From Pseudomonadota bacterium (lineage in GTDB: Bacteria; Pseudomonadota; Gammaproteobacteria; Steroidobacterales; Steroidobacteraceae), in assembly GCA_023433465.1 (NCBI GenBank), contig JAEZCR010000026.1, positions 4,989 to 68,988 on the forward strand: a DNA stretch of 64,000 bases, given 5' to 3'. Shown here piece after piece: positions 12,227-46,788 of this stretch. Below the pieces are notes generated by a model. That model did no database searches. It was not told where the DNA came from and saw nothing but the letters and a program-made list of their open reading frames with translations. The translations under genes and the position numbers were made by a program. The first letter of the stretch is position 1. The number at the start of each line of letters is the position of its first letter.

Positions 12227-12230
12227 TGTC

Positions 12231-13097: not shown

Positions 13098-13123
13098 GCT
13101 GCACGTTCACCGGAGGAGCAACC

Positions 13124-22251: not shown

Positions 22252-24077
22252 TTCGCCACTCCCGCCGCACCGACTGCGACCCTGATTGTCTGCTCGTCCA
22301 GGATCGGTACCACTCCCGATTCGATGACCTGGTGGATCATCGTGCGATACAGGAACAACCACTCACTACCGCCCATCTTCTCGCGGTTGTCGGTCACCAG
22401 CTTCCCGAGTTGCGCCGCGAGCTCCCCGACTTTCTTCCCATGGAGCGCCGCCGCCGCGGCGTTGCTCGCATGAGCGCGTATGGCGGCGATCATGGCATCG
22501 CGCAGGGTCGCGCCAAACATCACGGCACCACCTGCTCTTCCAGCCTCAGTCCACTGCGCCACCGCAACAGACAGCAAGTCCCCTAACAATGTATCGAGAA
22601 GGCTTCCCCGCTCCGCATTGCGCTCGACGCCGAGCAGACGGCCCGGATTCGCCGCCACCTCCTGTGCCGCGGCTGCAAGGATCGCCATCCAGTCGTCCTG
22701 CGACAGCAACAGGTGCTCGTCACTCGCCATCGCCGTCACGATCGCCGAGATGAGTCGATCGATCTCCGCGTTGCGGGTCGATGGCATCAATCCAGGAGTC
22801 GCCGCCACTCGTGCGACGACCACGCGCAGGATACTCTCGATGTTAGCGCGACTCCCGAGCCGTCGGAGCGCAGCCGAATCATCCTGCTTCAGCGCCTGCG
22901 CGATCGGAGCCAGTACCGGATTCAACAGCTGCGCGACGAGATTGTCCCACGGCTTGCCGGGATCGAGCAGCAAGCCACCTTCGCGCGCGAACGATTCGAC
23001 GACGCTCGTCGCGAGATCCAGGACCAGCGATCGGTCGATCGCGGGAGCGCCGGCGGCCACGCTTGCAAGATCCTTGAAGACGGCCCCAATGAGTTTGTCC
23101 GTCGAGTCCTGCGTCTTTCCAAGGAACAGATCCGGGCGCGCGGCAGCGAGTTGTGCGGTGGCCTTGAACAGTTGAACCGCACCGGCCTTCGAGACGACTT
23201 CGGTCAGCCCCAGGTCCGCGATCTTGAGCACGTAAGTGCGCGTCAGCGTCCCGAGGACATCGTCGTTGCCAAACTGTGCGCCGAAGAATGCCCCCGGATC
23301 TTCCGCCAGCGTGCGCAGCGCTTCGCCTGCCACCGGGCCCAACACGTTTTCGAGAACCCCTCGCCACTTGATCTGTTTGTCGAGCGACTCCGGCAGGCTC
23401 TCGACGATTTTCGGAAGCGTGTTCGTCACCAGCTTTTGCAGGTGTGCATCTTCGACGATGGCTTCCGGATGTTCAGCCAGCGCACCGAGCCCGGCCTTGA
23501 GGAAAATGGCCGCGACCCTTTCTCCGAACAGGTTGCGGGGACCGAGCGCGTCGGCATTGTCAGGGACCAGGTCCGCCACGCGCGATGCGACCGCCTTGAC
23601 CAGCGATTCGGCATTGCCGTCGAGACCGAACAACTTCGGGTCGGTGGCTGCGAACTCCGCCGCGACATCGACGATGACGAGGACCACGCGCGCAAACGGG
23701 CCCAGCGGCTCCTCGCCCCTGGCCCATTGATTGACCATCCAGTATCCCGCGAACTCGTCGGCGCGAGACGCAAGGTTCTTGTCGGCGATGATCTGCTGCC
23801 GCGCGTGCTCCGCCGAAAGCAGGTCGAATGCGTCCGCGAGTCGTTCCGCGCCTGGCTTGCCCGTGAACGAATCCCAGTAGCGGCTCAGATCCGGCGTGAT
23901 CTTTTCGGGATGGACCTCGAAGTATCCTCGGACCTTCGCCCGCTGTGGAAACGAAATCTTCTCGACGAGCGGCAGGAGCACCGTGCGATCGCGCGCGTAC
24001 TGCCCGATCGCCTCACTACCTGCGCGCTGCAGTCGGGCGGCGGCGCGAACCGCCATCATGATGAGGGTTGGATTCAC
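22248..24077 (-). CDS. Large (~609 aa) all-alpha, Ala/Leu-rich repeat-like protein, function unknown
   Basis: GTG start at 24077 (VNPTLIMMAVRAA...) overlaps the upstream stop as GTGA (24074-24077). No catalytic motif is seen. The first 85 codons of the ORF are Arg-rich and overlap the previous gene. Confidence 0.6.
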   Translation of the reverse strand: MNPTLIMMAVRAAARLQRAGSEAIGQYARDRTVLLPLVEKISFPQRAKVRGYFEVHPEKITPDLSRYWDSFTGKPGAERLADAFDLLSAEHARQQIIADKNLASRADEFAGYWMVNQWARGEEPLGPFARVVLVIVDVAAEFAATDPKLFGLDGNAESLVKAVASRVADLVPDNADALGPRNLFGERVAAIFLKAGLGALAEHPEAIVEDAHLQKLVTNTLPKIVESLPESLDKQIKWRGVLENVLGPVAGEALRTLAEDPGAFFGAQFGNDDVLGTLTRTYVLKIADLGLTEVVSKAGAVQLFKATAQLAAARPDLFLGKTQDSTDKLIGAVFKDLASVAAGAPAIDRSLVLDLATSVVESFAREGGLLLDPGKPWDNLVAQLLNPVLAPIAQALKQDDSAALRRLGSRANIESILRVVVARVAATPGLMPSTRNAEIDRLISAIVTAMASDEHLLLSQDDWMAILAAAAQEVAANPGRLLGVERNAERGSLLDTLLGDLLSVAVAQWTEAGRAGGAVMFGATLRDAMIAAIRAHASNAAAAALHGKKVGELAAQLGKLVTDNREKMGGSEWLFLYRTMIHQVIESGVVPILDEQTIRVAVGAAGVAK

Positions 24078-25237
24078 GGGCCGGCTCCACCTGCCGGCTG
24101 GCCGCTGGAAGAAGGGGGATGCGCAGCGGCAAAGGCGACTCGGAACGCGTCGACAGGTGTACTCGGTGGCGAACCCGCCGCGGCTCCTGCTCGCGCAGGC
24201 GTATCCGGAGTTTCCGGTTCGCGGCTGCTGGAGCGCGATTGCGCGCCACGCGTGAGACTGCGCGCGAGATCGAACCAGAACGGCGCCCCGAGACCGATCA
24301 GCAGACCCGCGAGGCCCACCGAGAGGATCCACTGCAGTCCGCGGACCGAAGCGATTCGATCGACTATCGATCCGACGTCCATCGGCAGAGCGCGCTGCTC
24401 GTCATCCACACAACCCGCATCGCGAGACCTCGGCGCCTTTCCATCCGCGGCAGCCGTTCGCGGCCGGCAGAAAGGCCAATACTCCGTGGAAATCGGCAGC
24501 CCGGTGTCGTCGATTCGCGCAAGCTCGGCGCGCACTCGCTCCGCGCCCGCATCGACGATTTCGTTTGGGGTGGAAACTTCCGGTCCCGCAGGCACCGGCG
24601 GAGCGCTCATCACGTCGGCAGCGCTCCTGGGACGAGGTGCATTCTCGGCCACCTGGGATTCGAGCGCCTGGACGACACTCTGTGTGAGCTTGTCGTCGTG
24701 CAGCAGCGACTTGAACACCCGCACCGCGTCCACGTTCACCGCGAATGCGCACACCATCGAAACGAGCAGACACCAGAAATGCGCCTGGCCCTGGAATCGC
24801 TGCGAAGCCCCCTGCCCGAAGCGATCGAACTTCTGCGCGAGGTCATTGATGATGATCTGCGTGCGTTCGGCTCCTGTCCGGGCAATCGCATCGCCGACAT
24901 GGGTATCGGCGAGGCGCTCGGCGAACTGCATCATCGACATCGATTTCAAATCGGCGGATTGAGCAATCGAGCGCAACCAGCTGGTCTTCTTCTCGTACGC
25001 CTGGTTGCGTGTGACCGATGCCAGGAACTGGTCACGGGCGGTTTCCATCGAGATCCCGCTCAGCGTCGCGGCTATCCGCGTGCTCAGCACGTCGTCGAAC
25101 AGCCGCTCCATCATGAGCCGGAACCCACGTTCGCGCGTCGAAAGAAGCTGGTAGCCCGTTTCGAGAACGATGGTCACCACCGTGGCGAGCGCCAGCATGA
25201 TCAGTGAAAACGCCAGCGCGGCTTCGAGCCAGTTCAT
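24074..25237 (-). CDS. Three-TM membrane protein (candidate YEATS-associated 3TM, YLATT-like)
   Basis: TM1 LEAALAFSLIMLALATVVTIVL, TM2 FWCLLVSMVCAFAVNV, TM3 LQWILSVGLAGLLIGLGAPFWF, and a Pro/Ser-rich C-terminal tail. It lies directly downstream of the YEATS-TIR gene. Confidence 0.6.
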   Translation of the reverse strand: MNWLEAALAFSLIMLALATVVTIVLETGYQLLSTRERGFRLMMERLFDDVLSTRIAATLSGISMETARDQFLASVTRNQAYEKKTSWLRSIAQSADLKSMSMMQFAERLADTHVGDAIARTGAERTQIIINDLAQKFDRFGQGASQRFQGQAHFWCLLVSMVCAFAVNVDAVRVFKSLLHDDKLTQSVVQALESQVAENAPRPRSAADVMSAPPVPAGPEVSTPNEIVDAGAERVRAELARIDDTGLPISTEYWPFCRPRTAAADGKAPRSRDAGCVDDEQRALPMDVGSIVDRIASVRGLQWILSVGLAGLLIGLGAPFWFDLARSLTRGAQSRSSSREPETPDTPARAGAAAGSPPSTPVDAFRVAFAAAHPPSSSGQPAGGAGP

Positions 25238-25252: not shown

Positions 25253-26014
25253 CTACGCCTTTGCTTTCGTCGCCTGAAGGATTTGTGCCGTCGCCGCATC
25301 GAGTTCCGCGGAGGAGCCGATATGGAGAGCGCTCCGGTTGGCGAGCGCTTCCGGCACTTCCGCCGCCGTACCGACGAGCAGAGGGATGACATTCTTGTCC
25401 TCGGCATTCATCGCGTAACCCATCTCGAGCTTCGACCACAAGCTGGGTTTTCCGGAGACGATGAAAACAGTCGCATCGGATTTCTTGATGGCCTGCTTCA
25501 CGAAGTGATCCCACTGCTGCCCAGCCTCCAAGTCGTCCGGCGACGCGATGGTGACTCCGTGACTCTTGAGCTTTTCCTTGAGCTGCCTCGCGAGATCGGA
25601 ATCCGCCGCTCCGTTCGAGACGTACACCGTAGGGTGCTGCTCTGGCAGCTCGGCATCCTTCCTGGGTGGCTTGGGTCCGGGCCTGACGACTGCGCGTCCA
25701 CTCGGCTTTTGCGGAACGATTGCGTCGGGCTCCGCCGGGTATTCGAGCTTGAGCTGGTGAACCCGCTTGAGGTTCTTGCCGGTGGCGCGAACGATCTCGA
25801 TATAGATCTTGAATTCGCCCCAACCTGCCGAATCTAGCCGAAAGCCGTTGCTTCGCTTCTTGATGACGCGAACCGGATCGCGAAATGTGGAGTGGAGCGT
25901 GTAGATCACATGTGTGATGACATCGAGCTCCTTCTTCGGCGCTTCGATCCATACGGACCAGTCCCACCAGTCCTTGGCGCTGTAAGTGGACGATTGTTTG
26001 ATCTGGATGGTCAT
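25253..26014 (-). CDS. YEATS-like domain fused to a TIR domain
   Basis: N-terminal DWWDWSVWIE...ITHVIYTLHSTFRDPVRVI...GWGEFKIYIEIV matches the eukaryotic YEATS signature. C-terminal VYVSNGAADSD...ATVFIVSGKPSLWSKLEMGYA is TIR-like. The ATG overlaps the upstream stop as ATGA (26011-26014). Confidence 0.75.
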   Translation of the reverse strand: MTIQIKQSSTYSAKDWWDWSVWIEAPKKELDVITHVIYTLHSTFRDPVRVIKKRSNGFRLDSAGWGEFKIYIEIVRATGKNLKRVHQLKLEYPAEPDAIVPQKPSGRAVVRPGPKPPRKDAELPEQHPTVYVSNGAADSDLARQLKEKLKSHGVTIASPDDLEAGQQWDHFVKQAIKKSDATVFIVSGKPSLWSKLEMGYAMNAEDKNVIPLLVGTAAEVPEALANRSALHIGSSAELDAATAQILQATKAKA

Positions 26015-26706
26015 GACCGGCCTCCATTCTTGAGCGGTATGCCTATCCACTGTGATTCCGCGTTCGACTGCCAGGGTTTCTTGCCGAGGCCTTCGATTTT
26101 CAGCTGGATCTGATCGTCGTCTTTCACGCCCTCGACCCACACGTAGACACCATCGCCTTCGGGCACCGGCGTTACCTCTGTCCAGGCAGTTCGTTCGCCC
26201 TTCGACCAAAGCCGATGCGAACACCGGGCATCGTCCCCGACGGACTTGAGCTTCCGGCCAAGCTCATCGGGGTTGATGCGCACTTTGACCTTGCGGCCCA
26301 TCCTGAGCTTCCATTCGCCAATGGTTTCCGCCAGCCGCAGAAAGGCCTCGAGCGGACTCGCCCGATCGAACGCGATGATCTCGTGGGACTGGTACATGCC
26401 GCCGACGTCCACATCGGTCTCAACCATCGCGATCGCGGGCTTTCCCTTGTTGCGTGCGTAGTTGATCTCGTCTCGCACCCAGTCGTGCGTGGTGTACTTG
26501 CCGTCCGCTTTCGCGTCCCGGCGCGTCAGCAATCCAACCACCGCATCGCACTCATCGATGCGGGCCTGGACGGCGGGAGTCAGCGCTTCGCCGCCGAGGC
26601 GCTCGCCCGTTACCGGATGCGCGAACTGGCTCGCGAACTGTCGCTCGCACCAACGCACGACGTCCCTATCTACATCACGAAACGAGAACCCCAGAAAGAT
26701 CTTCAT
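26011..26706 (-). CDS. TIR-like domain protein with a C-terminal beta-rich domain of unknown function
   Basis: MKIFLGFSFRDVDRD...CDAVVGLLTRRD...THDWVRDEINYA shows a flavodoxin-like TIR/DUF1863 pattern with a W-x-x-x-E motif. The ATG overlaps the upstream stop as ATGA (26703-26706). Confidence 0.6.
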   Translation of the reverse strand: MKIFLGFSFRDVDRDVVRWCERQFASQFAHPVTGERLGGEALTPAVQARIDECDAVVGLLTRRDAKADGKYTTHDWVRDEINYARNKGKPAIAMVETDVDVGGMYQSHEIIAFDRASPLEAFLRLAETIGEWKLRMGRKVKVRINPDELGRKLKSVGDDARCSHRLWSKGERTAWTEVTPVPEGDGVYVWVEGVKDDDQIQLKIEGLGKKPWQSNAESQWIGIPLKNGGRS

Positions 26707-28316
26707 GACTCCTCCCGCATTACGGCGAGATGCGATTTCACCCAGGTGATGATCGATTGGATCCAGATACCCTCGTTGGCGGGATAAGTACCGGGCTTTC
26801 CATTGAGTTTGGTCATGAGCTTGCCGCCCTTGTGATGCAGCGCGACGACTCCCCACATCTTGTTGAACACCGGGCTGCCGGAATTGCCTTCCTCGGTGGT
26901 CGTGCGATAGTGAACTCGACGAATCTCCGGTCGTGGAGGAGTCCCGTTGGGCGCCCCTTCGTGGTCTAGGATTTCGTTGTCCTGGAACGCGTAGGTCTGC
27001 TCCTCTCCCTGCGGGTGCCCGATGACGAAGACCTGAGGCTGAGGGGGATCGGGCTGGATCGTGGGAAGCCCTTTCGCGATGTCCAGCGGCTTCGGATCCT
27101 TCAAATCTCCTTTGAGGCGCATGAGGCAGAAATCGAGATCATCGCGTGGCGACTCACAGATGATCTCGTCGATCTCGTATGACTGATTGGGGTCGATCGC
27201 TTCGAATCTGACTTCCACGACGTCCGGGGTAGCGCCACCTTCGGCGCCCTTGGAATTCAAGACGTGGAAGTTGGTGAGAAGCAGGAATTCACCGGGATCG
27301 TCGTCCACGAAATCTTTCGAGCGCACCAGGAAACCCGTGCCGAATCGCTTTCCGAGCTTTTGCCGGATCGCCGCGACGCCAAGTCCCTGGTCAAGTCCCC
27401 TGATCCACCACTCCCGCGTCTTCGTTCCTTTTTCGATACCGAGTACCGCCTGGAACTGCGATTCGCTTGGAATCTTTTGCAGAGTCGGACCCGGATCCGC
27501 GGGAATCCTGACAGTGGCGTCCGGCAGACTCATCCTCTGGACCTTCAAGACTTCGAGCGCAGCCTGACCGCGATCGTCCTGATCGAGATTCCACACTTCC
27601 TTGAACTGGCGCAGCGTGCTGCTCAAGTGGAACTCTTTGGTCTTCGGCGATGCCGTGTACTCCCGCAGCGCCGATTCGATCGTTTCCCAGTCCTCGGTGC
27701 CGAGACTGGCTTCGGCGAGCGTCGCCAGGTACCAGTCGTCACGCTCGCCTTCCGGAACTGCCTTCAACGCGCTCAACAACTCCTTCGCCAGCTGCTGGCT
27801 ATCTATGTCCGGCGGGTAGTCGATGCCGTTGCGCTGGCAATGCGCGACACAGGCCAGCAGGTTCACGCCATGCCAGGTATTGCGCCTGGTATCCGCCTGA
27901 TATCCCGCACGGTAGGCCTCGATGGCGTTCGCCATCGAGAGCCGCGCCGCTGTCGAAGCGCGAAATCGCGAATCGAAGTACATCTGCTTGTACGACCTGC
28001 CTAACAACCCGGTGACTTCCGCCATTTCCGGGTGATCCGCGGGAATCCGCCGGCGCAGGACTTCGAGCACGTCCTGCGCGGCGGTGATTCGCCCGGTATC
28101 GATGAGCGCCTGGGCATACAGGCGTCGCGGAGTCGGCTCCACGGGCGCCACGCGGCCTATCGCTTCGGCTACGTCGATCAGCAGGCCGAAATCGCGAATG
28201 TTCCGCAGATCCGTCAGAAGCACGTTCGCCGCAGGCGGATCTTTCAGCGCTCCCGTCTTCCTGAGCTCGGCGATGAGCGCCTTTGCGTTGGCGCGGATTT
28301 CGTCGGCGCTCGCCAC
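26703..28316 (-). CDS. TPR-like (ASK1/DUF4071-like) N-terminal domain fused to a trypsin-like serine protease
   Basis: Catalytic triad candidates are H in LLTNFHVL, D in DDLDFCLMRL and S in GNSGSPVF. The N-terminal ~280 aa is a helical repeat with GLLGRSYKQMY and TWHGVNLLAC motifs. Confidence 0.75.
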   Translation of the reverse strand: MASADEIRANAKALIAELRKTGALKDPPAANVLLTDLRNIRDFGLLIDVAEAIGRVAPVEPTPRRLYAQALIDTGRITAAQDVLEVLRRRIPADHPEMAEVTGLLGRSYKQMYFDSRFRASTAARLSMANAIEAYRAGYQADTRRNTWHGVNLLACVAHCQRNGIDYPPDIDSQQLAKELLSALKAVPEGERDDWYLATLAEASLGTEDWETIESALREYTASPKTKEFHLSSTLRQFKEVWNLDQDDRGQAALEVLKVQRMSLPDATVRIPADPGPTLQKIPSESQFQAVLGIEKGTKTREWWIRGLDQGLGVAAIRQKLGKRFGTGFLVRSKDFVDDDPGEFLLLTNFHVLNSKGAEGGATPDVVEVRFEAIDPNQSYEIDEIICESPRDDLDFCLMRLKGDLKDPKPLDIAKGLPTIQPDPPQPQVFVIGHPQGEEQTYAFQDNEILDHEGAPNGTPPRPEIRRVHYRTTTEEGNSGSPVFNKMWGVVALHHKGGKLMTKLNGKPGTYPANEGIWIQSIITWVKSHLAVMREES

Positions 28317-28319
28317 GTG

Positions 28320-29255
28320 TCAGAGCTCGAGCATGGACCGCAACGCCTGGCGGAATTTCGGCTGCTTGAGATACTTCGTGGCGGAATGACGCCACGCGCC
28401 GTCGTTCTCTATCTGGATGTCCTCGATGCGCTTGACGCTCGAGAAGCGATAGTCGTTGGCGAGTTGGGGATCGAGACCGCAGACCGGATCGAGCCGGTCG
28501 AATAGATTGACCCATCGCTTTGCGACCCGTTCGTTCGGAAAGCCTTCGAGCCGCGACCATCCCGGCTGAAGCTTGTCCTGCACTTCGTCGAGCCCCAATG
28601 GACTGCCGATCGTGATGAGACCATCGACCTTGTTGCAGTCGCCGACTCTCTTGAGGCAGTCGTAGGCGATCACCGTTCCCATGCTGTGCGAAACCACGAT
28701 ATGAGGACCGTTCGACGCAGGCTTGTTCACCTTTTCGACGAAACGTTTGCGAATGGTTTGCTGGATGCGCACGGGCTGGCGACCCGGCGGCGCGAAGCTC
28801 ACGTCGAACAGGTAGTGGTGAACATCACGCAGAAACGCGTTCATGATCGGCTTCTTGATGAACCAGGGCAGCGGGATTCGTTCGAAAGAGCCTCCCGCCG
28901 CGGTCGGTGCCGCCGGCGGAGCCGAAGCGATCTCGTCGTCGTCGCGCGAGGTGAGTTTTTCGCGCAGCCCTTCGATGAACGCGGCTTCTTCCTTGTTGGC
29001 CGGCGTGGGGATGTCCTTGGCTCCGGCCGAGTCGGCGGCGGCATCCCTGTTGGCGTCCGTGCTCTCGAAATTGCTGACGTCGGTGATGGGCTCGCCGTAC
29101 AGGAGATCCGCCCAGTACACCATCGACGTGGTTACACCGTCGGTCTCGAGCGAGAGCGGCTCAGCCGCCGCCTCGAGCGCCTCGCACCAGATTCGGAGCA
29201 ATGTCTTCTCTTCGGGCTTGTTGGCGATGCCGTGTATGAAAGTGACGTGTGCCAT
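28320..29255 (-). CDS. Alpha/beta-hydrolase (lipase/esterase-like)
   Basis: Oxyanion-hole VTFIHGI and nucleophile elbow VVSHSMGTV. No signal peptide. It ends 3 nt before the next start. Confidence 0.7.
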   Translation of the reverse strand: MAHVTFIHGIANKPEEKTLLRIWCEALEAAAEPLSLETDGVTTSMVYWADLLYGEPITDVSNFESTDANRDAAADSAGAKDIPTPANKEEAAFIEGLREKLTSRDDDEIASAPPAAPTAAGGSFERIPLPWFIKKPIMNAFLRDVHHYLFDVSFAPPGRQPVRIQQTIRKRFVEKVNKPASNGPHIVVSHSMGTVIAYDCLKRVGDCNKVDGLITIGSPLGLDEVQDKLQPGWSRLEGFPNERVAKRWVNLFDRLDPVCGLDPQLANDYRFSSVKRIEDIQIENDGAWRHSATKYLKQPKFRQALRSMLEL

Positions 29256-29289
29256 GGGTACTCCCTGATTCCTCGTGTACTGTGCCCGA

Positions 29290-29904
29290 TCAAAGGTCGA
29301 AGGCAGGATCTTCGCCGATGTCCGGGATCTTCATGGTCGGTTCCTTCGCCGAAGGCTCGAGACCCCGCATCGATTCGAAGCCCGGTAGCCCCGCTTCCTT
29401 GCGAAGGGCATTGAGGCGATTGAGCCACCCCTTCCTGAACACGGCGAGCTTGGGATTCTTCTCTATGAGCCGCCCATAGAAGGCTTCACGCGCATCGCAA
29501 TATCGAATGACCACTTCGCCGTGATCGCACTCGGCGACTGCCTTTGCCGTGCCGGACCCGAAATCACCATCGACCGCGCAGTTCGCGGCGCCCTGCAGGA
29601 AACGCACGGCTCGGCCCACACCCATGTTCACCGCGGTATCGAACTGAACGAGGTCCAGCGGGTCGTTGAGCAGCTCACAACGGGCCGCGAGCCAGTAGCC
29701 GGACTCGTAGATCGATTGAACTTCATCCTCGGAGATGAGCTTGACGTCCTGCGGCCCGGCACCCTGCCGTGCCCGCCACTGGTCGTAGACTTTCTGGGTG
29801 ACTCCCCTGTTGGTGCGGCCGCCGGGGTCGTCGGGGTGATCGACGAACCCGCCCTCCCAACGCAATACGAATTTGAGCGCAGAAGTCAGCTGGGTGGATG
29901 GCAT
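29290..29904 (-). CDS. GH108-family N-acetylmuramidase with a PG_binding_3-type peptidoglycan-binding domain
   Basis: LRWEGGFVDHPDDPGGRTNRGVTQ is the GH108 catalytic motif. It is followed by DGDFGSGTAKAV (PG-binding). No signal peptide or holin is nearby. It is the first gene of the operon. Confidence 0.8.
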   Translation of the reverse strand: MPSTQLTSALKFVLRWEGGFVDHPDDPGGRTNRGVTQKVYDQWRARQGAGPQDVKLISEDEVQSIYESGYWLAARCELLNDPLDLVQFDTAVNMGVGRAVRFLQGAANCAVDGDFGSGTAKAVAECDHGEVVIRYCDAREAFYGRLIEKNPKLAVFRKGWLNRLNALRKEAGLPGFESMRGLEPSAKEPTMKIPDIGEDPAFDL

Positions 29905-30297
29905 GGGTCCGTCCGGACGCGCCGCGTCGCGAGTAGCTAGCTATTGTTCTTGTGATGCCCGCACCATAGTACAGGTGCGATCCGGGCCGCAATCCCGATC
30001 GGCGCGCCTCGTTCACCGAGTGCCAAATAGTACCGATGGGTGTACTGTCCGCGCGTCACCGGCGGACGACGCGATCTAGTTAGTTTCTGCGACCATTGGT
30101 GCGACGCGCAATTGTTCCATCGGGATGCCTGGAATGCCCCGTCTTCATGACCCATTCGAGTACGGTGTTCGTGCGGGCTGCGGTCACGCGATCCGGCGGC
30201 TGCCTATCTGGAAGGAATTCAACGACTTCACCGCGCCGACAATGGCCGCGGATGGTCGCGGGAAGTCGTTCGTTGCCCTAACAAGGAGCAACCGGCG

Positions 30298-33117
30298 ATG
30301 ACGAATCCGCGGAAACGCAGCTTCAAGGCATTCATCTCCTATAGCCACGCCGCGGATGGCAAGCTCGCCCCCGCGGTGCAACGTGCGCTGCATCGCATCG
30401 CCAAGCCGTGGTACCGCATCCGTACCATGCGTGTGTTTCGCGACCAGACGAATCTGGCCGCCAGCCCCGGGCTGTGGTCGTCGATCGAATCGGCGCTGGA
30501 ACAAGCCGAGTACTTCCTCTACATGGCCTCGCCGCAGGCCGCGCAATCTCCATGGGTGCAGAAGGAAATCGAATGGTGGTTGAGCAACCGCTCGCCGCAG
30601 ACCTTCCTCATCCTGCTCACGGACGGCCAGATGGCGTGGAACAGCGAAGCGGCGGATTGGGACTGGAGCAACACGACGGCATGGCCTTCCCAGGCGGCCC
30701 GCGCATTCCGCGAAGAGCCGTTGTACACGGATCTTCGCTGGGCTCGAAAGGAGGAGCAGCTCTCGGCACGGCACTCGCAGTTTCGAGCGGCGATGCTCGA
30801 TCTCGCTGCCACGCTGCTGGGCCGTCCGAAGGATGAGCTCGACGGCGAGGATGTGCGTCAGTACCGTCGGACCCGACGCATCGCCGGGCTCGCGATCGTG
30901 ACACTCGCCGCGTTGTTCATTGCCGCCGCGGTCGCGGCCTACCAGGCTACCCAGCAGAGCAGATTGGCGACCTCGCGTGCGCTGGGCGCGCGATCCGAAG
31001 CTCTGTTGCCGACGAATCCGGAACTCGCCCTGCTGCTGGCGCGCGAGGCCGTCAGCGTACGAGCGGATGAGCAAGCCGTGTTCGCATTGCGCCAGGCGTT
31101 CGTGCGCAATCCCCTGCGCGTGTTTCACCAGGCCCCGTCCGGCACGAACCTCGCCGCGGCCTTTGCCAGTGCCGATGCGGTCGTGGTTGCGGATCCCGAC
31201 GGGGGCGCGAGCATCTGGAGTGTCGCCTCGGGAACCCGCATCGCGGGTGTGGCGGCCGAGCCCGGCGACCGGGCCAGGGTGAGTCATTCGAACGACGGCA
31301 CGATGGTCGTCATCGGCACCGAGGAACCGGAATTCGCCGTCCATGACGCGAAGTCTTGGCAGGTCATCCGGCAGCTTCCCGGAAGCCGCGCGCGATTCAC
31401 TCGCGATGGCAAGACTCTCGTCGCCGAAGACAATGGGGCAATCAGGCAGTGGGACGTGCCATCGCTGAGCGAGCGCGTCTCCCCGATCAAACTACCGAGC
31501 GGGCATTCCTTGTCGGCACCCGCTCCGGATGGTCGCGTGTTCGTGCTGGCGAGTGACGGCGACCCGCTCGAGTTCGTGGTTGTCGATGCGCGCAGCGCGC
31601 GGACCGTCGCGCGGATTCCCGCGATACCGATGGTGGAAGGAGATCCATTGAGCCCCGACGGTACGCTGCTGCTCGTCCAGGATGAGGACCTCGAGCTTTG
31701 GGATACGCGGACCGGCAAGCGGGTGCGGTCGCTGCAACAGCCGGAGTTCGGCGGCATTGGCTGGACGACGTTCGCCGCCTTCACACCCGATGGCGCGAAG
31801 GTCTTCACCGGCAATCGCAACGGCGAGATCCACGCCTGGAAGGTGGCGACGGGTGAATACCTGAGGAATTGGACTCTGCATCGCAACGATATCCGCGCGA
31901 TCGAATTCAGTCGTGACGGGCAGACCATGCTCACCGGCGGAGCGGACGGAACGGTGTGCCTCTGGGAGGTGCCGGGCGACGTCCTGGCGGTTTCGAGCGA
32001 CCGCTGTCTCGTGACCTTGGGAGGCAGAGGCGACGACGCCTGGGACTTCTCCTTTGCCCCGGACGGTCGCCACTTTCTGACGACTCATATGGATGGCACG
32101 GTTCGCGTGTGGGATCGAGAGACCTGGCACCCCAGCGTGACCGTTCCCGGCACGACCATGGCCGCCAGTGAGGACGGCCGGTTCGTCTTGAGTTCCGCGG
32201 ACGATCAACCGCTGCGACTCTGGGATGGAGAGTCCGGCGCGCTGCAAGCAACCCTCGAAATGACGGGAGAGTCCATCGAAGCAATGGCGGTGAGTGGCGC
32301 TGCATCGCTGTTTGCCGTCGCGCGGAAGGAAGGAACCGTTGGGCTTTGGCGCATGCCGTCCGGCGAGCTCGCACTGCAACTGCCCGCAAGCTCCGGCAGC
32401 ACCCAGGCGCTGGCGTTCAATCGCGCCGGAACTGAACTGGTCACCGCGGGAGCGGATGGAAAGATCCGCTTCTGGAGCACGGGTGCGCCGCAGTTATTGC
32501 GCGAGTGGGCCGCGTCTGGTGGAAGTATCGCGAAGCTTCTCGTCGAGAATGATGACAGGCATATCGTTCTGACCTTCGACCCCGGAACGGTGCAAGTGCG
32601 CGACATCGAGAACGGCGCGGTGATCTCGGAGACGAAAGTCGTGGCCGAGGGACGTACCGCGGGAGTCTTGACGCCCGGTGCGAATCGGATGTTGCTGGCC
32701 GTGGTCGACGATCGGTTTCCTGAATTGTGGAATCTCGGGACCGGCAAGAGAGTGTTGACCCTTCCCGGCCACACTGACGAGGTGTGGTCGACGGCGCTGA
32801 GCTCCGATGGCCGGTTCTTGCTGACCGGCAGTGGTTTCTTCATGTCCCGAGGTGAAGCACCCGAAGATGGCAACGCGATACGAATCTGGGACGCACAGAG
32901 CGGCCGCGAAATTCTCAGTTACCGGGCGCCCGGATGGGTGGTGAACCAGGTGGCCTTTGCCGGCGACGACACGACTATCTTCTCGGCCAGCCGGGACGGG
33001 ATGGTGCGACGCTTCCGCTGCGAAGTCTGCCTTCCTCTGGAAGAGCTGCAGTCGCTCATATCCTCGCGCGTGACGCGCGAGCTGACGGCGGGCGAGCGCG
33101 CTCAATATGTTCCGTGA
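30298..33117 (+). CDS. TIR - single TM - WD40 (double beta-propeller) protein
   Basis: AAGGAG RBS. TIR motifs FKAFISYSHAADG and SPWVQKEIEWW. The positive patch RQYRRTRR is followed by TM IAGLAIVTLAALFIAAAVAAY. There are then ~700 aa of WD repeats (GADGTVCLWEV, MDGTVRVWD, GADGKIRFWS, HTDEVWSTALSSDGRFLLTGS). Confidence 0.85.
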   Translation: MTNPRKRSFKAFISYSHAADGKLAPAVQRALHRIAKPWYRIRTMRVFRDQTNLAASPGLWSSIESALEQAEYFLYMASPQAAQSPWVQKEIEWWLSNRSPQTFLILLTDGQMAWNSEAADWDWSNTTAWPSQAARAFREEPLYTDLRWARKEEQLSARHSQFRAAMLDLAATLLGRPKDELDGEDVRQYRRTRRIAGLAIVTLAALFIAAAVAAYQATQQSRLATSRALGARSEALLPTNPELALLLAREAVSVRADEQAVFALRQAFVRNPLRVFHQAPSGTNLAAAFASADAVVVADPDGGASIWSVASGTRIAGVAAEPGDRARVSHSNDGTMVVIGTEEPEFAVHDAKSWQVIRQLPGSRARFTRDGKTLVAEDNGAIRQWDVPSLSERVSPIKLPSGHSLSAPAPDGRVFVLASDGDPLEFVVVDARSARTVARIPAIPMVEGDPLSPDGTLLLVQDEDLELWDTRTGKRVRSLQQPEFGGIGWTTFAAFTPDGAKVFTGNRNGEIHAWKVATGEYLRNWTLHRNDIRAIEFSRDGQTMLTGGADGTVCLWEVPGDVLAVSSDRCLVTLGGRGDDAWDFSFAPDGRHFLTTHMDGTVRVWDRETWHPSVTVPGTTMAASEDGRFVLSSADDQPLRLWDGESGALQATLEMTGESIEAMAVSGAASLFAVARKEGTVGLWRMPSGELALQLPASSGSTQALAFNRAGTELVTAGADGKIRFWSTGAPQLLREWAASGGSIAKLLVENDDRHIVLTFDPGTVQVRDIENGAVISETKVVAEGRTAGVLTPGANRMLLAVVDDRFPELWNLGTGKRVLTLPGHTDEVWSTALSSDGRFLLTGSGFFMSRGEAPEDGNAIRIWDAQSGREILSYRAPGWVVNQVAFAGDDTTIFSASRDGMVRRFRCEVCLPLEELQSLISSRVTRELTAGERAQYVP

Positions 33118-33314
33118 GGATGTCGGTGCGCCGGTGCGAGTCCCTTGGGATTAAGGGTCGATGCGGTGGTTAGAGTCCGTACTAACCATTAGGCCTGGGC
33201 AGGCGAACATCGGCAGAGCGCGAATGGCCATTTGGAAGTAAAATCAATGTTGCGCAGCCCGCGAATGGAATCGCCGGCGAAACACGGCCGCCAGGTCCGA
33301 ACCTGGATGCGAGG

Positions 33315-34682
33315 TTGGCCATGGCAAAGAGCATTTTCGTCAGCCACATCTCGGAGGAACGCGAGATCGCGGCGTTCATCAAGCGCGCGATGACCGACGC
33401 CTTCGATGCTGTCGCGGTTTTCACGTCCAGCGATGTCGGCAGTGTCGGCGCCGGTGACGATTGGCTGAATGCGGTCAAGAAGGCGCTGGCGCGCTCCGCC
33501 GCGATCATCGTGTTGTGCAGCCAGGAGTCCATCAACCGGCCATGGGTGCAGTTCGAACTGGGAGCCGCGTGGATGTTGAAGAAGCGGATCATCCCGATTT
33601 GTCATTCCGGCCTCAGAACCGAGCACCTGTCGATTCCGCTGTCCTTGCTCGAGGCCGTGGAACTGGGCACGGAATCAGGATTGCGAAAACTCTACGCCGG
33701 CGTCGTCAAAGCGCTGAGGGTGAAAGCGGAGCGAGTCCCCGCTGACATGCAGGAATTGTTGCGCGAAGCCCGGGCCCTGCAACGGGATCTCGGCGTGCAC
33801 CAGTTCGAGATGTACATCGACATCCTGATCCCGCGTGACGAACTGGGCGGCAGGATTCCGGGAACGGCGCGAATCGAATCCGACAACAGGTCGATGGAGC
33901 TGTTCGGTTTTCGGAACTCAAAGGGCTGCACCTGGAGCGACATCGAGCGCGCCGCCGACGTCAGCGCCGATACGCGCTGGCTGGACCAGCTGCACGAATG
34001 CGTTCGCAGGGCCAGTCGGAACGAACATTTCGAGGCCGTGCAGGCTATCTACCACACCGGGCGTGGCCGATCCTTCCAGCCGCAGCTGGCGAAGATGCAG
34101 TTGCAGTCGGACGGCACGTGCCGTTTCCACGTGCATCTCGTGGAGACGGTGGTCGCGCCGCTCGTGGAGGTGAACAACGAGTTCGGCCTGCTTGCGACGC
34201 TGTTGCGGTTGGGGATGCGCTTTCGCTACGAGGTGATCGAGAAATACGCCCGGTTCAACAGGGACGCCAGGGCGAGTTCGTCCGACCCGCTGATGATCGA
34301 GCGATACGTCCGCGAAGCACTGCGAGCCGCGATTCTCGTCATCGAGCGCGATGCGGCTTCGCGAGGCTCGGCGATCCTCATGGATCCGGACGCCCTGCTG
34401 GCGCTGTTCGATCGGGATTCGGAGCGCGAGCAGATAGAAAGTCACCAAGCCCTCTGGCAGCGCGATCGGGCATTGTTGTTCAAGAACGATCCGCCGCCGA
34501 CATTGCCGCAGCTGGATGCGATCATCGCCAACCTGCGCGGCATGAACTGGCGCTTCATGAGCCTTGCCACGCAGCGCTGCAATGAGATCGTCAGCACGCG
34601 CTGGTCTGGTGATTCGGCTACGCCGGTCGCCGGGCGGCGGGTCCAACTCGCGCCGGGCAGGACGAACATGCTGGACGGTTGA
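33315..34682 (+). CDS. TIR domain protein with a ~320-aa C-terminal domain of unknown function
   Basis: SIFVSHISEEREIA...AAIIVLCSQESINRPWVQFELGAAW is a TIR pattern with W-x-x-x-E. The remainder is helical with no motif I recognise. Confidence 0.7.
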   Translation: MAMAKSIFVSHISEEREIAAFIKRAMTDAFDAVAVFTSSDVGSVGAGDDWLNAVKKALARSAAIIVLCSQESINRPWVQFELGAAWMLKKRIIPICHSGLRTEHLSIPLSLLEAVELGTESGLRKLYAGVVKALRVKAERVPADMQELLREARALQRDLGVHQFEMYIDILIPRDELGGRIPGTARIESDNRSMELFGFRNSKGCTWSDIERAADVSADTRWLDQLHECVRRASRNEHFEAVQAIYHTGRGRSFQPQLAKMQLQSDGTCRFHVHLVETVVAPLVEVNNEFGLLATLLRLGMRFRYEVIEKYARFNRDARASSSDPLMIERYVREALRAAILVIERDAASRGSAILMDPDALLALFDRDSEREQIESHQALWQRDRALLFKNDPPPTLPQLDAIIANLRGMNWRFMSLATQRCNEIVSTRWSGDSATPVAGRRVQLAPGRTNMLDG

Positions 34683-34765
34683 GCCCTGGAGGAGAACCGC
34701 GCCAAGAGCTTGTCGCGGCGGGAGAAGATGGCGCGGCCGGAGAGATTACTCACCCGCCATGCGGG
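34683..34765 (+). pseudogene. Remnant of an integrase 3' end fused to a decayed tRNA-Arg 3' half (fossil att junction)
   Basis: An ungapped alignment of 34701-34747 with 49151-49197 gives 37/47 identities. The translation ENRAKSLSR compares with the integrase C-terminus ENRDKMLSR. It is followed by TGGCGCGGCCGGAGAGATT (18/19 to the tRNA 3' end) and a degenerate T-arm-like ACTCACCCGCCA. Confidence 0.65.
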
Positions 34766-35021: not shown

Positions 35022-35066
35022 TGGCGCGCCCGGAGAGATTCGAACTCCCGACCACCTGGTTCGTAG
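35022..35066. repeat. attR: 45-bp direct repeat identical to the 3' end of tRNA-Arg
   Basis: TGGCGCGCCCGGAGAGATTCGAACTCCCGACCACCTGGTTCGTAG is identical to 49179-49223. Confidence 0.9.
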
Positions 35067-35300
35067 TTGGAAGGGGTGGAAATCTCGAGCGGGACGGGAA
35101 ACGTAGATAGTTGATTTTGTTGAGTCAAAAATCGCGAAGTCGCATGGCATCCGTTGCAATTGTCACGACTGAGCACGACGAAGCAGGACCAAGTCCCGCA
35201 AAACTCCCGCAAGTACCTGGTTACTTTTCGTACGTAACCACCTGGCCATTAACCAGGTCGTCGGGACCGGCGGGGGTAGGAGCGTGTGTGCCGATGCACG

Positions 35301-36161
35301 CTACGGCTTCCGCACGCCGAAGAGGTGCGGCCATAGTTTCTGGCACTCAGCCGCAGTCGGGTAACGGCCGTATCTCTGGTTGAATTCCTCCCCTACGCGG
35401 TTGCATTCGCGCCAATCAGCTTGGGGAATAGCACGGACCTCCGGCAAAGGACGCATCACGGGAGTGCTTGGTCGATCTGAGACGGGAAGCACTGGCGACC
35501 TGATGCGACTACGTGCGAGCGCGGAACGGAACATAGATGCGAACAGCCGCTCCGGCTCGCGCTGCTCGGGATGGAATAACCAAACCTTGGAAGCCAGGTC
35601 CTTCTGCAACTTCATTTGCAACGCTTCTCGCGGAAGCATGGAGTCGCCGGCATCAAGTCGAATCTCGATAGCGGGAACGTTCCGGCGTCGGATCTTGCGC
35701 AGCTTTGCACGCGTCACTTTGTGCGTAACTGCAACTTCAAGTATCAACGCTTTTGCATCGGACTCGATGATGATGTCGGGAACGAAGTCGCCCTCATTTT
35801 TCTCGACCCTGACTCTGCGGATCGGAAACTGTTCGCCATCGGCCACCAGGGCCTGGTGCCGAACGGACACACCGAGCTTTGTCTTGCGTTGTCTGACGAA
35901 GTCATAGGGTGGGACCGTGAAGGAGTCCAACTCCGCTAGCAGTTCCTTAGCAAGCATGTGCAGAGCTGATTCGGCAGCGCCTTGGCAACTGGTGACCTCG
36001 AAGTGAGCGAAATGGTGTCGGCGAATTGATCCCTTCTTTGCAACCAGTGGCTTGCCGCAGCGGGCGCACATACATCCGCAAGCTAAGCCACTCGGTACAT
36101 TCCCAATGAACTGCAAATTGCCGTCGCGCAGCCCATAACCACTGCAATCACCGGCGATCAC
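35301..36161 (-). CDS. CoiA-like nuclease family protein
   Basis: An N-terminal Cys cluster CGCMCARCGKPL...RRHHFAH, then a PD-(D/E)xK-like FVPDIII...LILEVAVTHK. It lies 47 nt downstream of the E2 gene on the same strand. Confidence 0.6.
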   Translation of the reverse strand: MIAGDCSGYGLRDGNLQFIGNVPSGLACGCMCARCGKPLVAKKGSIRRHHFAHFEVTSCQGAAESALHMLAKELLAELDSFTVPPYDFVRQRKTKLGVSVRHQALVADGEQFPIRRVRVEKNEGDFVPDIIIESDAKALILEVAVTHKVTRAKLRKIRRRNVPAIEIRLDAGDSMLPREALQMKLQKDLASKVWLFHPEQREPERLFASMFRSALARSRIRSPVLPVSDRPSTPVMRPLPEVRAIPQADWRECNRVGEEFNQRYGRYPTAAECQKLWPHLFGVRKP

Positions 36162-36208
36162 GACTTGAGAATTCCGTCATGCCAAGATTCTTAGCGACGC
36201 CAATGCAT

Positions 36209-36883
36209 TTATGCCTTGCTCATGCGCTTTAGCGCTTCATCTACGGGCCTGATCGCCTTCGATGCATCACTGCGAGGGATCTTGTCCCGCAAGTTGCGCA
36301 CCATCTCGAAGTGGCAGTCCCGAATTCTTTTTCCGCTACCACACGGGCAGTCCCAGTGGCCTTTGACTCTCTTCGCGGCAAGGAGCTCGAAGTACTTCTT
36401 CACCTTCACCAAGTCGTCGGTGTCGAAAATCTCCTGATAGAACTGCTTGCGGCCATATAGACCGTGATCCCACTGACCGAAAGGCCACACTCCATCGCGT
36501 TCAAATACAGCTTGGCCAATGAAATAGTTCCGGACAGGACCGTCGATGAAATCCAGCAGGGATTTTCCTTTGGGCCAAACCCGCCAGCGTTCCTCAGGAA
36601 GAAAGAGGCACGATGCGCCGGTTTCATAGCAGTGCCGATCCAGGGTGCGTGGAATCCGCCCGGCGGTTTCGAATACCACCGGCACGCCCTCTGGATAATC
36701 TTGCGGGAGCTGAATTTCAATCGAAAAGCGGTCGAGGATCTTGCTGCCTTCCTTGATCTCTAGGCTGCCTGAAATCCTGACCTGGCCTTCGAGCACCGAG
36801 AAGTGCAGATGCGGGTACACCTGCGCGACTTCTGCCTTCTCTCGATCGAAGGCGACGAGATCACGTTCGTGCCATGCCTTCAT
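36209..36883 (-). CDS. CBASS E2-only (Cap2-like, ubiquitin-conjugating-fold) protein with a C-terminal SEC-C motif
   Basis: UBC-like core with PQDYPEGVPVVFE and a candidate catalytic Cys in HCYETGASCLFLP. C-terminal CPCGSGKRIRDCH. The start overlaps the CD-NTase stop (ATGA). Confidence 0.7.
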   Translation of the reverse strand: MKAWHERDLVAFDREKAEVAQVYPHLHFSVLEGQVRISGSLEIKEGSKILDRFSIEIQLPQDYPEGVPVVFETAGRIPRTLDRHCYETGASCLFLPEERWRVWPKGKSLLDFIDGPVRNYFIGQAVFERDGVWPFGQWDHGLYGRKQFYQEIFDTDDLVKVKKYFELLAAKRVKGHWDCPCGSGKRIRDCHFEMVRNLRDKIPRSDASKAIRPVDEALKRMSKA

Positions 36884-37785: not shown

Positions 37786-37787
37786 AG

Positions 37788-38987: not shown

Positions 38988-39027
38988 CAGTGTAAGCTTC
39001 CGCTGTACAGTGTCAAGGACGCCGCAG

Positions 39028-39735: not shown

Positions 39736-40085
39736 TTTTTCTTAGAAATCGTCTTCCCTTGCCTGCTCGCCCACTCCTGCAATTGTTCCGCCGTGATCTT
39801 CTTTTCAATCACCGTACGAAATGCCATCGCGAACTTCGGATCGGACTGCGTGACTCGTTTAATGTCTTCAATGGGCGGACGTACATCACGTGACCGGAGT
39901 TCATCTTCGGAGACGCCAAGCACTTTGGCGATTTGCACCAACACCTTCTCCGAAGGATGGCGGCGTCCAAGCTCTATGTCCGACAAGAATGGCGGCGTAC
40001 ATCCAATTTGCCGCGCAATCTCGCGAAGGGATATGTCTCGCTCGTCGCGGACACGCCGTATGTATTCTCCAAGTGTTTCGCTCAT
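39732..40085 (-). CDS. capH: XRE-family helix-turn-helix regulator (CapH-like)
   Basis: LGEYIRRVRDERDISLREIARQIGCTPPFLSDIELGRR is a classic XRE HTH. It is paired with the ImmA-like peptidase. Confidence 0.7.
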   Translation of the reverse strand: MSETLGEYIRRVRDERDISLREIARQIGCTPPFLSDIELGRRHPSEKVLVQIAKVLGVSEDELRSRDVRPPIEDIKRVTQSDPKFAMAFRTVIEKKITAEQLQEWASRQGKTISKKK

Positions 40086-40271
40086 TGTGTAAGCGTAGGA
40101 AGCTTACGGAGATCTGTCAAACACGCCGCGAACGCAACTCTCCTGTGTCATTCGCCGATGAACGGTTCGCCGGCCGAAGTGCCTGTCGCTACTTTCTCTC
40201 CTATCAAGAGGCGGTCAATTCCTCTCGTGATCAACGCCAATCCCGTGTCGTTCCTTGCGCGCGGCGTCCCT

Positions 40272-45182: not shown

Positions 45183-45207
45183 TCAATCTCTCCCTCAAGT
45201 GCTGCCG

Positions 45208-46776: not shown

Positions 46777-46788
46777 GGGCGATTGCTA

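Follow-up and report, generated by a model that had tools for sequence, protein, structure and literature searches.

Four TIR Genes at a tRNA-Arg Hotspot: A Conserved TIR-beta/pYEATS-TIR Operon with Facultative TIR Additions and a Possible Thoeris-Like Role

Introduction

Four genes coding for TIR domains lie between positions 25253 and 34682 of a 64,000-nucleotide stretch of a Steroidobacteraceae genome (contig JAEZCR010000026.1; this whole stretch is called the window below), and the question raised by this locus is whether they work as one signalling unit. An earlier reading of the DNA, made without database searches and referred to here as the sequence-only reading, regarded them as a set of paralogous sensors feeding a common NAD-derived output. 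The comparison with related genomes presented here shows that the cluster consists of a conserved operon with facultative TIR additions. As for function, the chances are about even that the locus is a Thoeris-like TIR anti-phage signalling system to which two TIR genes have been added at the same defence hotspot.

Gene Organization of the Locus

The segment 25253-34682 holds seven genes, five on the minus strand and two, divergently oriented, on the plus strand:

29290..29904, minus strand: GH108 muramidase with PG_binding_3, 204 aa, at the head of the operon
28320..29255, minus strand: alpha/beta-hydrolase-like protein with an SHSMG nucleophile elbow, 311 aa
26703..28316, minus strand: TPR-S-trypsin fusion (Pfam TPR-S and Trypsin_2), 537 aa
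26011..26706, minus strand: TIR-beta, in which a beta-sandwich (residues 138-227) follows the TIR domain, 231 aa
25253..26014, minus strand: pYEATS-TIR, a pYEATS domain and then a TIR domain, 253 aa
30298..33117, plus strand: TIR-TM-WD40, with a TIR domain, one transmembrane (TM) segment and WD40 repeats, 939 aa
33315..34682, plus strand: TIR-X, a TIR domain with a conserved C-terminal domain of ~320 aa, 455 aa

The four TIR genes had already been seen in the sequence-only reading, which overlooked the three genes intervening between them, chiefly the TPR-S-trypsin fusion. From GH108 through pYEATS-TIR, the minus-strand junctions are ATGA overlaps or gaps of 3 to 34 nt. Only 3 nt separate the stop of the alpha/beta-hydrolase gene from the start of TPR-S-trypsin, and TIR-beta is joined at both of its ends, to TPR-S-trypsin and to pYEATS-TIR, by ATGA start/stop overlaps; with such spacing at the last three junctions, these genes are translationally coupled. 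The five minus-strand genes, from GH108 to pYEATS-TIR, constitute one translationally coupled operon. The two plus-strand genes are separated by a gap of 197 bp.

Conservation of the Module in Related Genomes

Homologues of TIR-beta were located in long contigs, in 43 metagenome loci and in 24 metagenome-assembled genomes (MAGs), and the genes of these relatives were tagged by iterative hidden Markov model (HMM) searches and with Pfam. About 60 related loci, belonging to six phyla or more, were obtained in this way, and they are not phylogenetically independent. The TIR-beta/pYEATS pair is their nearly invariant constant unit: a pYEATS(-TIR) gene comes directly after TIR-beta in 31 of 35 distinct metagenome loci, and among the 22 MAG loci in which a TIR-beta open reading frame (ORF) was detected, 21 show this order. 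The second gene of the pair usually codes for pYEATS-TIR, and pYEATS alone occurs in distant Bacteroidota relatives and in locus L006. A TPR-S protein stands next to the pair in 21 of the 29 loci whose flanks reach 4 kb or more on each side, the remaining eight having the pair without TPR-S. What the TPR-S protein carries or adjoins differs between loci:

TPR-S fused to trypsin: the window, L010, L045, L057
TPR-S fused to patatin: L016, L059
TPR-S fused to CHAT: L072, L074
TPR-S fused to TIR: L058 9460-10743 (Pfam), L072 5730-7001 (HMM tagging only)
TPR-S fused to a deoxyribosyltransferase-like domain (Nuc_deoxyrib_tr match): L023
TPR-S of ~440 aa, unfused: adjoins patatin, SLATT_2 or GH108

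The gene order of the window (alpha/beta-hydrolase, TPR-S-trypsin, TIR-beta, pYEATS-TIR) recurs in L057, from Steroidobacteraceae MAG008, and the order GH108, TPR-S, TIR-beta, pYEATS-TIR is found in L001/L056, likewise from a Steroidobacteraceae MAG. The module is conserved across phyla, its carriers being Steroidobacteraceae, other Gammaproteobacteria, Nitrospira, Anaerolineales, Acidimicrobiia, Bacteroidota and Xanthobacteraceae, all of them MAGs. A constant core with exchangeable effectors and a patchy distribution across lineages typically marks a defence system.

Extra TIR genes accompany 13 of the 21 loci with TPR-S versus 1 of the 8 without it (one-sided Fisher p = 0.02, calculated on loci that are not independent). 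The satellite TIR architectures observed in relatives are TIR-nSTAND1-FGE, TIR-FGE, TIR-TGT-like, TIR-TPR and TIR-WD40. To this extent the proposal of a set of paralogous sensors finds support, with extra TIR-sensor genes recurring around the module (L059 included); the four TIR genes of the window are not, on the other hand, one conserved unit. The closest relative, L001, lies at the same hotspot, with tRNA-Arg(acg) next to rsbR, and has neither of the plus-strand genes. This, together with the solitary homologues of TIR-X and TIR-TM-WD40 described below, indicates that the four-TIR cluster is not conserved as a whole, and that it is composed of a conserved operon and facultative TIR additions.

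Two of the related loci show arrangements of their own. The 14-kb array of L059 (907-15260) contains TPR-S-patatin, a TIR protein of 924 aa, TPR-S, TIR-beta, pYEATS-TIR, TIR-TM-WD40 and Macro-DUF4062; the 924-aa TIR protein has the length and position of the TIR-nSTAND1-FGE protein in L018. At 8119-13707 of the 281-kb contig L005, a bare TIR-beta/pYEATS-TIR pair lies between two ORFs matching CobN/Mg-chelatase, as if it had been inserted into or beside a split cobN gene.

TIR Domains and the W-x-x-x-E Motif

The four W-x-x-x-E peptides quoted in the sequence-only reading are all present in the genes to which they had been attributed, and their codons were verified:

25424-25438, minus strand: WSKLE, W193/E197 of pYEATS-TIR
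26467-26481, minus strand: WVRDE, W76/E80 of TIR-beta
30553-30567, plus strand: WVQKE, W86/E90 of TIR-TM-WD40
33543-33557, plus strand: WVQFE, W77/E81 of TIR-X

Pfam TIR_2 exceeds its gathering score (28 bits) in three of the proteins (55.3, 38.0 and 49.4 bits), with E-values of 1.2e-14 for pYEATS-TIR, 2.7e-09 for TIR-TM-WD40 and 8.2e-13 for TIR-X, the last of which also matches Pfam ThsB_TIR (5.8e-06). TIR-beta remains below the TIR_2 gathering score (20.3 vs 28 bits). Its family profile matches the TIR profile of pYEATS-TIR with 98.6% probability (E 6e-16, hhalign), and sixteen TIR-beta homologues carry PF13676. The N-terminal part of the AlphaFold model of TIR-beta (pLDDT 90.6) shows a strand-helix order of the TIR/flavodoxin-like type and places E80 in the first turn of alphaC; Foldseek matches the model to ThsB, TIR-STING, RPS4, RPP1 and SARM1. 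The full model also resembles NAD-kinase (E 9e-6), which at a TM-score of ~0.3 was provisionally treated as generic two-domain similarity, a common NAD-related ancestry being the alternative. The possibility that the beta-sandwich is a cryptic YEATS domain was rejected (hhalign probability 0.7%).

Only three columns are invariant in the four-way TIR alignment, and the Trp and Glu are two of them; both residues are in register in all pairwise profile alignments (TIR-X vs pYEATS-TIR, 99.3% probability; TIR-TM vs pYEATS-TIR, 96.7%). The register extends to characterized TIR domains. The TIR profile of pYEATS-TIR matches SARM1 and PdTIR at ~1e-5 and places 'WverEi' on 'WVHKEI' of SARM1, scoring 22.8 bits against the wild-type SARM1 chain and 16.5 bits against the E642A mutant. 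TIR-X aligns directly with 'WTNYEL' of AbTir and 'WPQKEL' of PdTIR. For TIR-TM-WD40, TIR-only alignments were used, since the untrimmed profile was dominated by WD40 matches; its matches are weak but confined to TIR structures, with W and E falling on 'WCLMEL' of L6 and 'WCLDEL' of AtTIR. Searches of sequences from the Protein Data Bank (PDB) with phmmer (pYEATS-TIR, TIR-TM and TIR-beta domains), or with the TIR-beta family profile, gave no useful match. The assignment of the Trp and Glu to catalytic-type positions is upheld by these profile and direct alignments, which put them in register with W638/E642 of SARM1 and W204/E208 of AbTir.

The Glu at the catalytic position is invariant or nearly so within all four TIR families. 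W76 and E80 do not vary across 69 TIR-beta homologues of ~230 aa; in the pYEATS-TIR family, E197 is kept in 126 of 142 sequences, and among the same 142 the Trp position holds W 90 times, F 18 times and Y 4 times. E208 is the essential catalytic residue of AbTir, and the Trp of the motif (W204 in AbTir, W638 in SARM1) is needed for ADPR cyclization (Manik et al.). As judged from sequence, the four TIR domains are genuine and keep their catalytic residues, and an NAD+ cleavage or cyclization activity is predicted for them. Similarity to SARM1, AbTir, PdTIR and the plant TIRs (L6, RUN1, RPS4) lies in the catalytic Glu, the alphaC Trp and the TIR fold; identity is low, at 12-24%, other domains are attached, and activity in the window proteins is a prediction.

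An HMM built from the TIR domains of pYEATS-TIR homologues recovered exactly these four proteins among the 672 stop-to-stop ORFs of the window (E<=10), which argues that the clustering of TIR genes is not due to chance. Each of the four TIR domains is joined to a different non-TIR domain, as had been proposed: pYEATS, a beta-sandwich, TM-WD40 and the ~320-aa C-terminal domain. By the standards of this class, such a density of TIR genes is ordinary, contrary to what had been claimed; relatives hold 5-6 TIR genes in ~14 kb, and published Thoeris islands contain 6-7 ThsB genes.

Proteins of the Minus-Strand Operon

The TPR-S-trypsin protein matches Pfam TPR-S (2.6e-15), MAP3K_TRAF_bd (1.3e-09) and Trypsin_2 (1.4e-19), and the triad motifs of the protease are kept: TNFHV (348), DLDFCLMRL (393) and GNSGSP (477). 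It is predicted to be both signal receiver and effector, and is the sole candidate in the cluster for the receiver of a TIR-made signal.

In pYEATS-TIR, the N-terminal domain matches Pfam pYEATS (1.8e-18) and YEATS (7e-15). TPR-S and pYEATS (PF20308, PF20305) both exceed their gathering scores, the two values being 66.7 and 57.3 bits, in one neighbourhood with TIR. The pYEATS-TIR family comprises 539 representative clusters at E<=1e-10. Its YEATS profile matches eukaryotic YEATS structures with E-values of 3e-12 to 3e-5; LHxTF aligns with the eukaryotic LHxSF/LHxSY, GWGEF is identical to the motif of Taf14/Yaf9/TAF14b, and the pocket-loop residues align with the TAF14b, YEATS2 and Yaf9 structures. 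H41, F44, W65, G66 and F68 are invariant in a 20-sequence alignment and kept in 137 or more of 142 homologues. The acyl-lysine pocket is presumably formed by the LHxTF and GWGEF loops. By its sequence, pYEATS qualifies as a bona fide YEATS fold with the pocket motifs intact. It has these motifs in common with the eukaryotic acyl-lysine readers (AF9, ENL, YEATS2, GAS41, Taf14, Yaf9) and differs from them in being fused to TIR, in a bacterium without histones.

The two genes at the head of the operon are candidate effectors. The GH108 protein matches Pfam Glyco_hydro_108 (1.9e-28) and PG_binding_3 (4.3e-11), as well as a PHROG endolysin family (2e-46), and neither a signal peptide nor a TM segment was found in it; it can be regarded as an endolysin-like muramidase and a candidate lytic effector. 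For the alpha/beta-hydrolase, which has SHSMG at residue 189, weak Pfam matches to Hydrolase_4, LCAT and Abhydrolase_6 were obtained, and NCBIfam, PHROGs and PADLOC gave it no name. In L057, the corresponding place in the operon is taken by a 311-aa orthologue (E 1e-201). This protein is a candidate lipase or esterase effector.

Immediately beyond the pYEATS-TIR gene lies a further candidate component:

24074..25237, minus strand: membrane protein of 387 aa, candidate accessory gene, no family assigned

It starts 15 bp downstream of pYEATS-TIR, has hydrophobic segments at residues 2-32, 154-175 and 298-325, and shows no match in Pfam, PADLOC, NCBIfam or PHROGs. A homologue (E 8e-34) directly follows pYEATS-TIR in the Nitrospira MAG loci L026/L062, which suggests that the 387-aa protein may be an accessory membrane effector. 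The region downstream of pYEATS-TIR, 21472-25237, codes for this multi-TM protein, a protein of ~610 aa and one of 296 aa with a single hydrophobic segment; its GC content at third codon positions (GC3) is island-like, and its three genes have no match in the NCBIfam, PHROG or PADLOC family libraries.

Plus-Strand Genes TIR-TM-WD40 and TIR-X

TIR-TM-WD40 combines its TIR domain with a WD40 beta-propeller part of ~700 aa (Pfam WD40 2.6e-40) and a single TM segment at residues 192-218, preceded by RQYRRTRR. The Arg cluster ahead of the only TM helix leads to the prediction of a cytoplasmic TIR domain and extracytoplasmic propellers, i.e. of a receptor-like topology. This arrangement recalls the Toll-like receptors, which have a cytoplasmic TIR domain, one TM helix and repeats on the opposite side of the membrane; in TIR-TM-WD40 the domain order is reversed, WD40 takes the place of LRR, and the function is predicted from sequence. 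The TIR-TM part has over 759 homologues. In L059 of Nitrospira sp. KAN-bin2, a collinear orthologue of 938 aa (E 1e-96) follows pYEATS-TIR on the same strand after 137 bp, and related TIR-TM or TIR-WD40 genes adjoin the module in L038, L028 and L061. Other homologues stand alone, in L053-L055. TIR-TM-WD40 is thus a facultative companion of the module. The PADLOC candidate model 'TIR-TM' does not match it, and matches TIR-X weakly.

Full-length homologues of TIR-X number more than 150. Those in L007-L009 (Variovorax, Casimicrobiaceae and a third genome) stand alone, and no homologue was found beside the module among the ~60 loci outside the window; TIR-X is probably an autonomous single-gene unit. 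Its ~320-aa C-terminal domain (33720-34682) matches no family and contains many invariant polar residues, e.g. D219, R221, H247, H272, H274, R298, R302, R304 and E306; it might be an orphan APAZ-like sensor. The AlphaFold model of TIR-X (pLDDT 86) has SPARTA TIR-APAZ as its top 20 Foldseek matches in the PDB (E 1.6e-6 to 1e-4, ~360 columns, TM-score ~0.25), and the two proteins are alike in length (~420-450 aa for TIR-APAZ, 455 aa for TIR-X) and in layout, with the TIR domain at the N terminus and a mixed alpha/beta region at the C terminus. The TIR-X family profile shows no sequence similarity to TIR-APAZ outside the TIR domain, the PADLOC Aga/TIR models match TIR-X within its TIR part only, and TIR-X has no Argonaute gene as a neighbour, either in the window or in L007-L009. 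The identification of TIR-X as a SPARTA TIR-APAZ protein was not accepted, given the lack of an Ago neighbour and of sequence support; the fold match is a hint.

TIR-X of L009 (7001-8341) and TIR-TM-WD40 of L054 (7001-9798), on contigs from sister samples, occupy the same slot ~320 bp downstream of a ~390-aa FAD_binding_3 gene and look like alternative cassettes at one hotspot.

Intergenic Region

The ~390-bp control region described between the divergent gene sets is real as an interval, with 393 bp (29905-30297) between the opposed start codons. One promoter-like element was recognized within it:

29964..29994, minus strand: promoter-like block, TTGCGG-15 nt-TACTAT, ~60 nt upstream of the GH108 start

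This putative promoter is the sole well conserved stretch in the comparison with the region upstream of the L001 operon, and it lies within ~90 bp of the GH108 start. A sigma-70 consensus scan of 24-35.4 kb returned no promoter, the block at 29964-29994 scoring below threshold. The position of the conserved block suggests that the operon promoter is likely located at the GH108 end and not in a shared central element. A motif, ATAGTAC(A/C)G(G/A)TG, occurs twice in the divergent region, at 29966-29977 and 30027-30038, with a spacing of 61 bp; the first copy overlaps the promoter-like block and the second is partly conserved in L001. These copies may be operator sites.

Genomic Setting

GC3 falls from ~0.87 to 0.70-0.80 between ~21.4 and 49 kb of the window, and the distal part of this region is an integrative element of 14.2 kb, bounded by an exact 45-bp direct repeat (35022-35066 = 49179-49223) that corresponds to the 3' part of tRNA-Arg:

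35022-49255: integrative element, with tRNA-Arg(acg) at 49179-49255
cargo of the element: CoiA_N-like protein
36209-36883: CBASS E2
36880-37785: CBASS cyclase
37788-38987: CBASS HNH-SAVED effector
39028-39735: weak CapP-like gene
40272-45182: Type ISP/IIG restriction-modification enzyme
45208-46776: SoFic-like Fic protein
46953-47504: NikA/MobC-like protein
47936-49171: integrase

The position of this attachment (att) repeat places the TIR cluster just outside the element and rules out that the cluster is part of the integrase-bearing island. The cluster nevertheless stands beside CBASS, restriction-modification and SoFic cargo at a tRNA-Arg hotspot, which counts in favour of a defence role. 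Directly after the TIR-X stop, at 34695-34747, there is a degenerate copy of the hairpin of the integrase 3' end (21/24 matches) together with the 19 nt that open the tRNA-Arg 3' segment (18/19), and this suggests that an earlier integration at this hotspot left a scar. At the left edge of the low-GC3 region (~21.4 kb), no repeat matching the 34695-34747 copy was detected.

Proposed Mechanism and Alternative Explanations

The Thoeris-like reading, which we regard as having about an even chance, would assign the core system to the minus strand from 29904 to 25253, possibly on to 24074. TIR-beta and pYEATS-TIR, two co-translated paralogues, would act as a hetero-oligomer in which the YEATS fold, the beta-sandwich or both detect a cue of infection. 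The assembled TIR domains, in which the Glu and Trp are present, would then turn NAD+ into a messenger of the cyclic ADP-ribose type; TPR-S would bind this messenger and switch on the fused trypsin-like protease, leading to abortive infection. More speculatively, the alpha/beta-hydrolase and the signal-less GH108 protein could serve as additional or downstream lytic effectors. TIR-TM-WD40 may feed the same TPR-S receiver, in the manner of the multiple ThsB proteins of Thoeris, and TIR-X is most likely a self-contained TIR protein. Enzymatic activity, heteromer formation, the identity of the ligand and the direction of the signal are the parts of this scheme that we infer. An extended form of it, in which a YEATS-gated heteromeric TIR pair senses an acylated or otherwise modified lysine of a phage or host protein and, together with TIR-TM-WD40-like receptors for cues from beyond the membrane, feeds one NAD-derived messenger to TPR-S receivers that fire proteases, lipases or lysins, is quite unlikely.

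Several points weigh against the Thoeris-like reading. Nucleotide binding by TPR-S is presumed, even for the validated ThsI, and many TPR-S partners are proteins of ~440 aa without a recognizable effector domain. The TIR-beta/pYEATS-TIR pair occurs bare in several loci (L005 and Anaerolineales loci), so that it can act without TPR-S, perhaps as a plain NADase, and the distant relatives (L006 and the Bacteroidota loci) have pYEATS without a TIR domain. TIR-TM-WD40 and TIR-X are found alone elsewhere, and the tallies come from loci that share phylogenetic history. PADLOC 2.0 and NCBIfam hold no model for TIR-beta, pYEATS-TIR or TPR-S-trypsin; no experimental study of the module was found in the accessible literature, nor any paper on pYEATS or bacterial YEATS domains.

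Part of this evidence would fit a scheme in which the signal runs in the opposite direction or there is no second messenger: TPR-S senses the invader or acts as regulator, the protease activates or licenses the TIR proteins by cleaving them, and these deplete NAD+ as stand-alone abortive-infection effectors with sensors of their own. Stand-alone TIR proteins are generally regarded as NAD+-depleting effectors, and both TIR-X and TIR-TM-WD40 are solitary in other genomes; the pair does without TPR-S in the eight adequately flanked loci counted above, most TPR-S partners have no recognizable enzymatic domain, and TPR repeats commonly bind proteins. The fusions speak for the opposite direction, because TPR-S is repeatedly joined to cell-killing domains (trypsin, patatin, CHAT and the ThsI-like deoxyribosyltransferase-like domain), which is the pattern of a messenger receiver. 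Moreover, the Trp linked to cyclic products is kept in all four TIR domains, and one validated Thoeris type pairs a TPR-containing effector with a cADPR (cyclic ADP-ribose) signal. We hold this scheme, the main rival, to be somewhat unlikely but viable.

The full version of the sequence-only reading, with four TIR proteins as inputs co-regulated from the shared 393-bp region and converging through one NAD-derived messenger on one output, draws on the divergence of both gene sets from a single intergenic region, on the multi-TIR clusters that recur around the TPR-S module, on the L059 orthologue of TIR-TM-WD40 placed 137 bp after pYEATS-TIR on the same strand, and on the several ThsB genes that are frequent in Thoeris loci. 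Evidence against it comes from L001, which lacks the plus-strand genes at the same hotspot, and from TIR-X, which is solitary in L007-L009 and never beside the module in ~60 other loci; the 197-bp gap between the plus-strand genes and the restriction of the conserved non-coding block to the GH108 end point in the same direction, and a four-input system appears rather improbable. Very improbable indeed is a locus with no immune role, in which the TIR proteins are scaffolds or host-directed virulence factors (cf. Brucella BtpA/TcpB), or take part in envelope remodelling. Such a role could appeal to the GH108 muramidase in the operon, to the predicted extracytoplasmic propeller on one TIR protein and to the WxxxE motif, to which a structural role was given when it was originally reported from Brucella TIR effectors, as related by Manik et al. 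Against it stand the relatives, which are free-living soil and water bacteria known from MAGs alone, the constant core with variable effectors and patchy phyletic spread, and the adjoining CBASS, restriction-modification and SoFic cargo; no secretion signals were found.

If the Thoeris-like reading is true, the operon would represent a type with an obligate pair of unlike TIR proteins, a YEATS domain as putative infection sensor and a serine protease gated by TPR-S. It would offer a direct route to the ligand of TPR-S, which is still presumed for the validated type VIII, and to the target of a YEATS domain where there are no histones. With its recurring satellite TIR-sensor genes (WD40, STAND-FGE, TGT-like, TPR), the module is a natural system for the question of a shared messenger and receiver. 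Were the YEATS-gated form correct, it would be the first case of a 'chromatin reader' fold functionally connected to bacterial nucleotide immune signalling, within a multi-input immune hub. All known carriers are uncultured environmental bacteria, which accounts for the absence of the system from the usual E. coli and Bacillus screens.

Comparison with Known Systems

Two Pfam families of the TPR-S/pYEATS conflict systems (PF20308, PF20305) are present together with TIR in the operon. Burroughs and Aravind (2020) are said to have predicted computationally a TPR scaffold that recognizes NAD+-derived signals, as well as prokaryotic YEATS domains. The pYEATS and TPR-S domains and the idea of TPR-S as a receiver were already predicted computationally in 2020, and related Thoeris types were validated in 2025.

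Among these, type VIII Thoeris has a ThsB that makes canonical cADPR and an effector, ThsI, composed of a CMP hydrolase and TPR; type IV, with a caspase-like protease effector, and type VII, with a SLATT effector, are likewise validated (bioRxiv 10.64898/2025.12.03.692087). The TPR of ThsI is the presumed cADPR sensor, for which the same preprint refers to an earlier prediction by Burroughs and Aravind. YEATS and trypsin are absent from the text and supplements of that work (Yirmiya et al.; bioRxiv 10.64898/2025.12.03.692087). Among established models, those of PADLOC for ThsB match TIR-TM-WD40 (1e-4) and TIR-X (2e-5) weakly and do not match pYEATS-TIR or TIR-beta; no ThsA match was obtained, and neither SLOG, Macro nor another established receptor domain was found in 21-35 kb.

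The differences from Thoeris concern both halves of the system. A single ThsB is replaced here by an obligate pair of two different TIR proteins. In place of the CMP hydrolase with TPR of type VIII there is TPR-S-trypsin, accompanied in the operon by the alpha/beta-hydrolase and GH108; the TPR-S protein of the window carries Trypsin_2 and no ThsI-type hydrolase fold, and the relative L023 has a TPR-S-like protein with a Nuc_deoxyrib_tr match. The similarities with the systems of Yirmiya et al. lie in the design. TIR genes with the WxxxE motif are in an operon with an effector that bears a presumed ligand-sensing domain, and this domain is a TPR of the kind predicted by Burroughs and Aravind (a likeness by description). 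The relatives possess effectors of the protease, SLATT and phospholipase types, several TIR genes are found per island, and the context is that of a defence island. Furthermore, the TIR domains of the validated type VIII ThsB proteins match the pYEATS-TIR profile with 98.1% probability, with the WxxxE motif in register.

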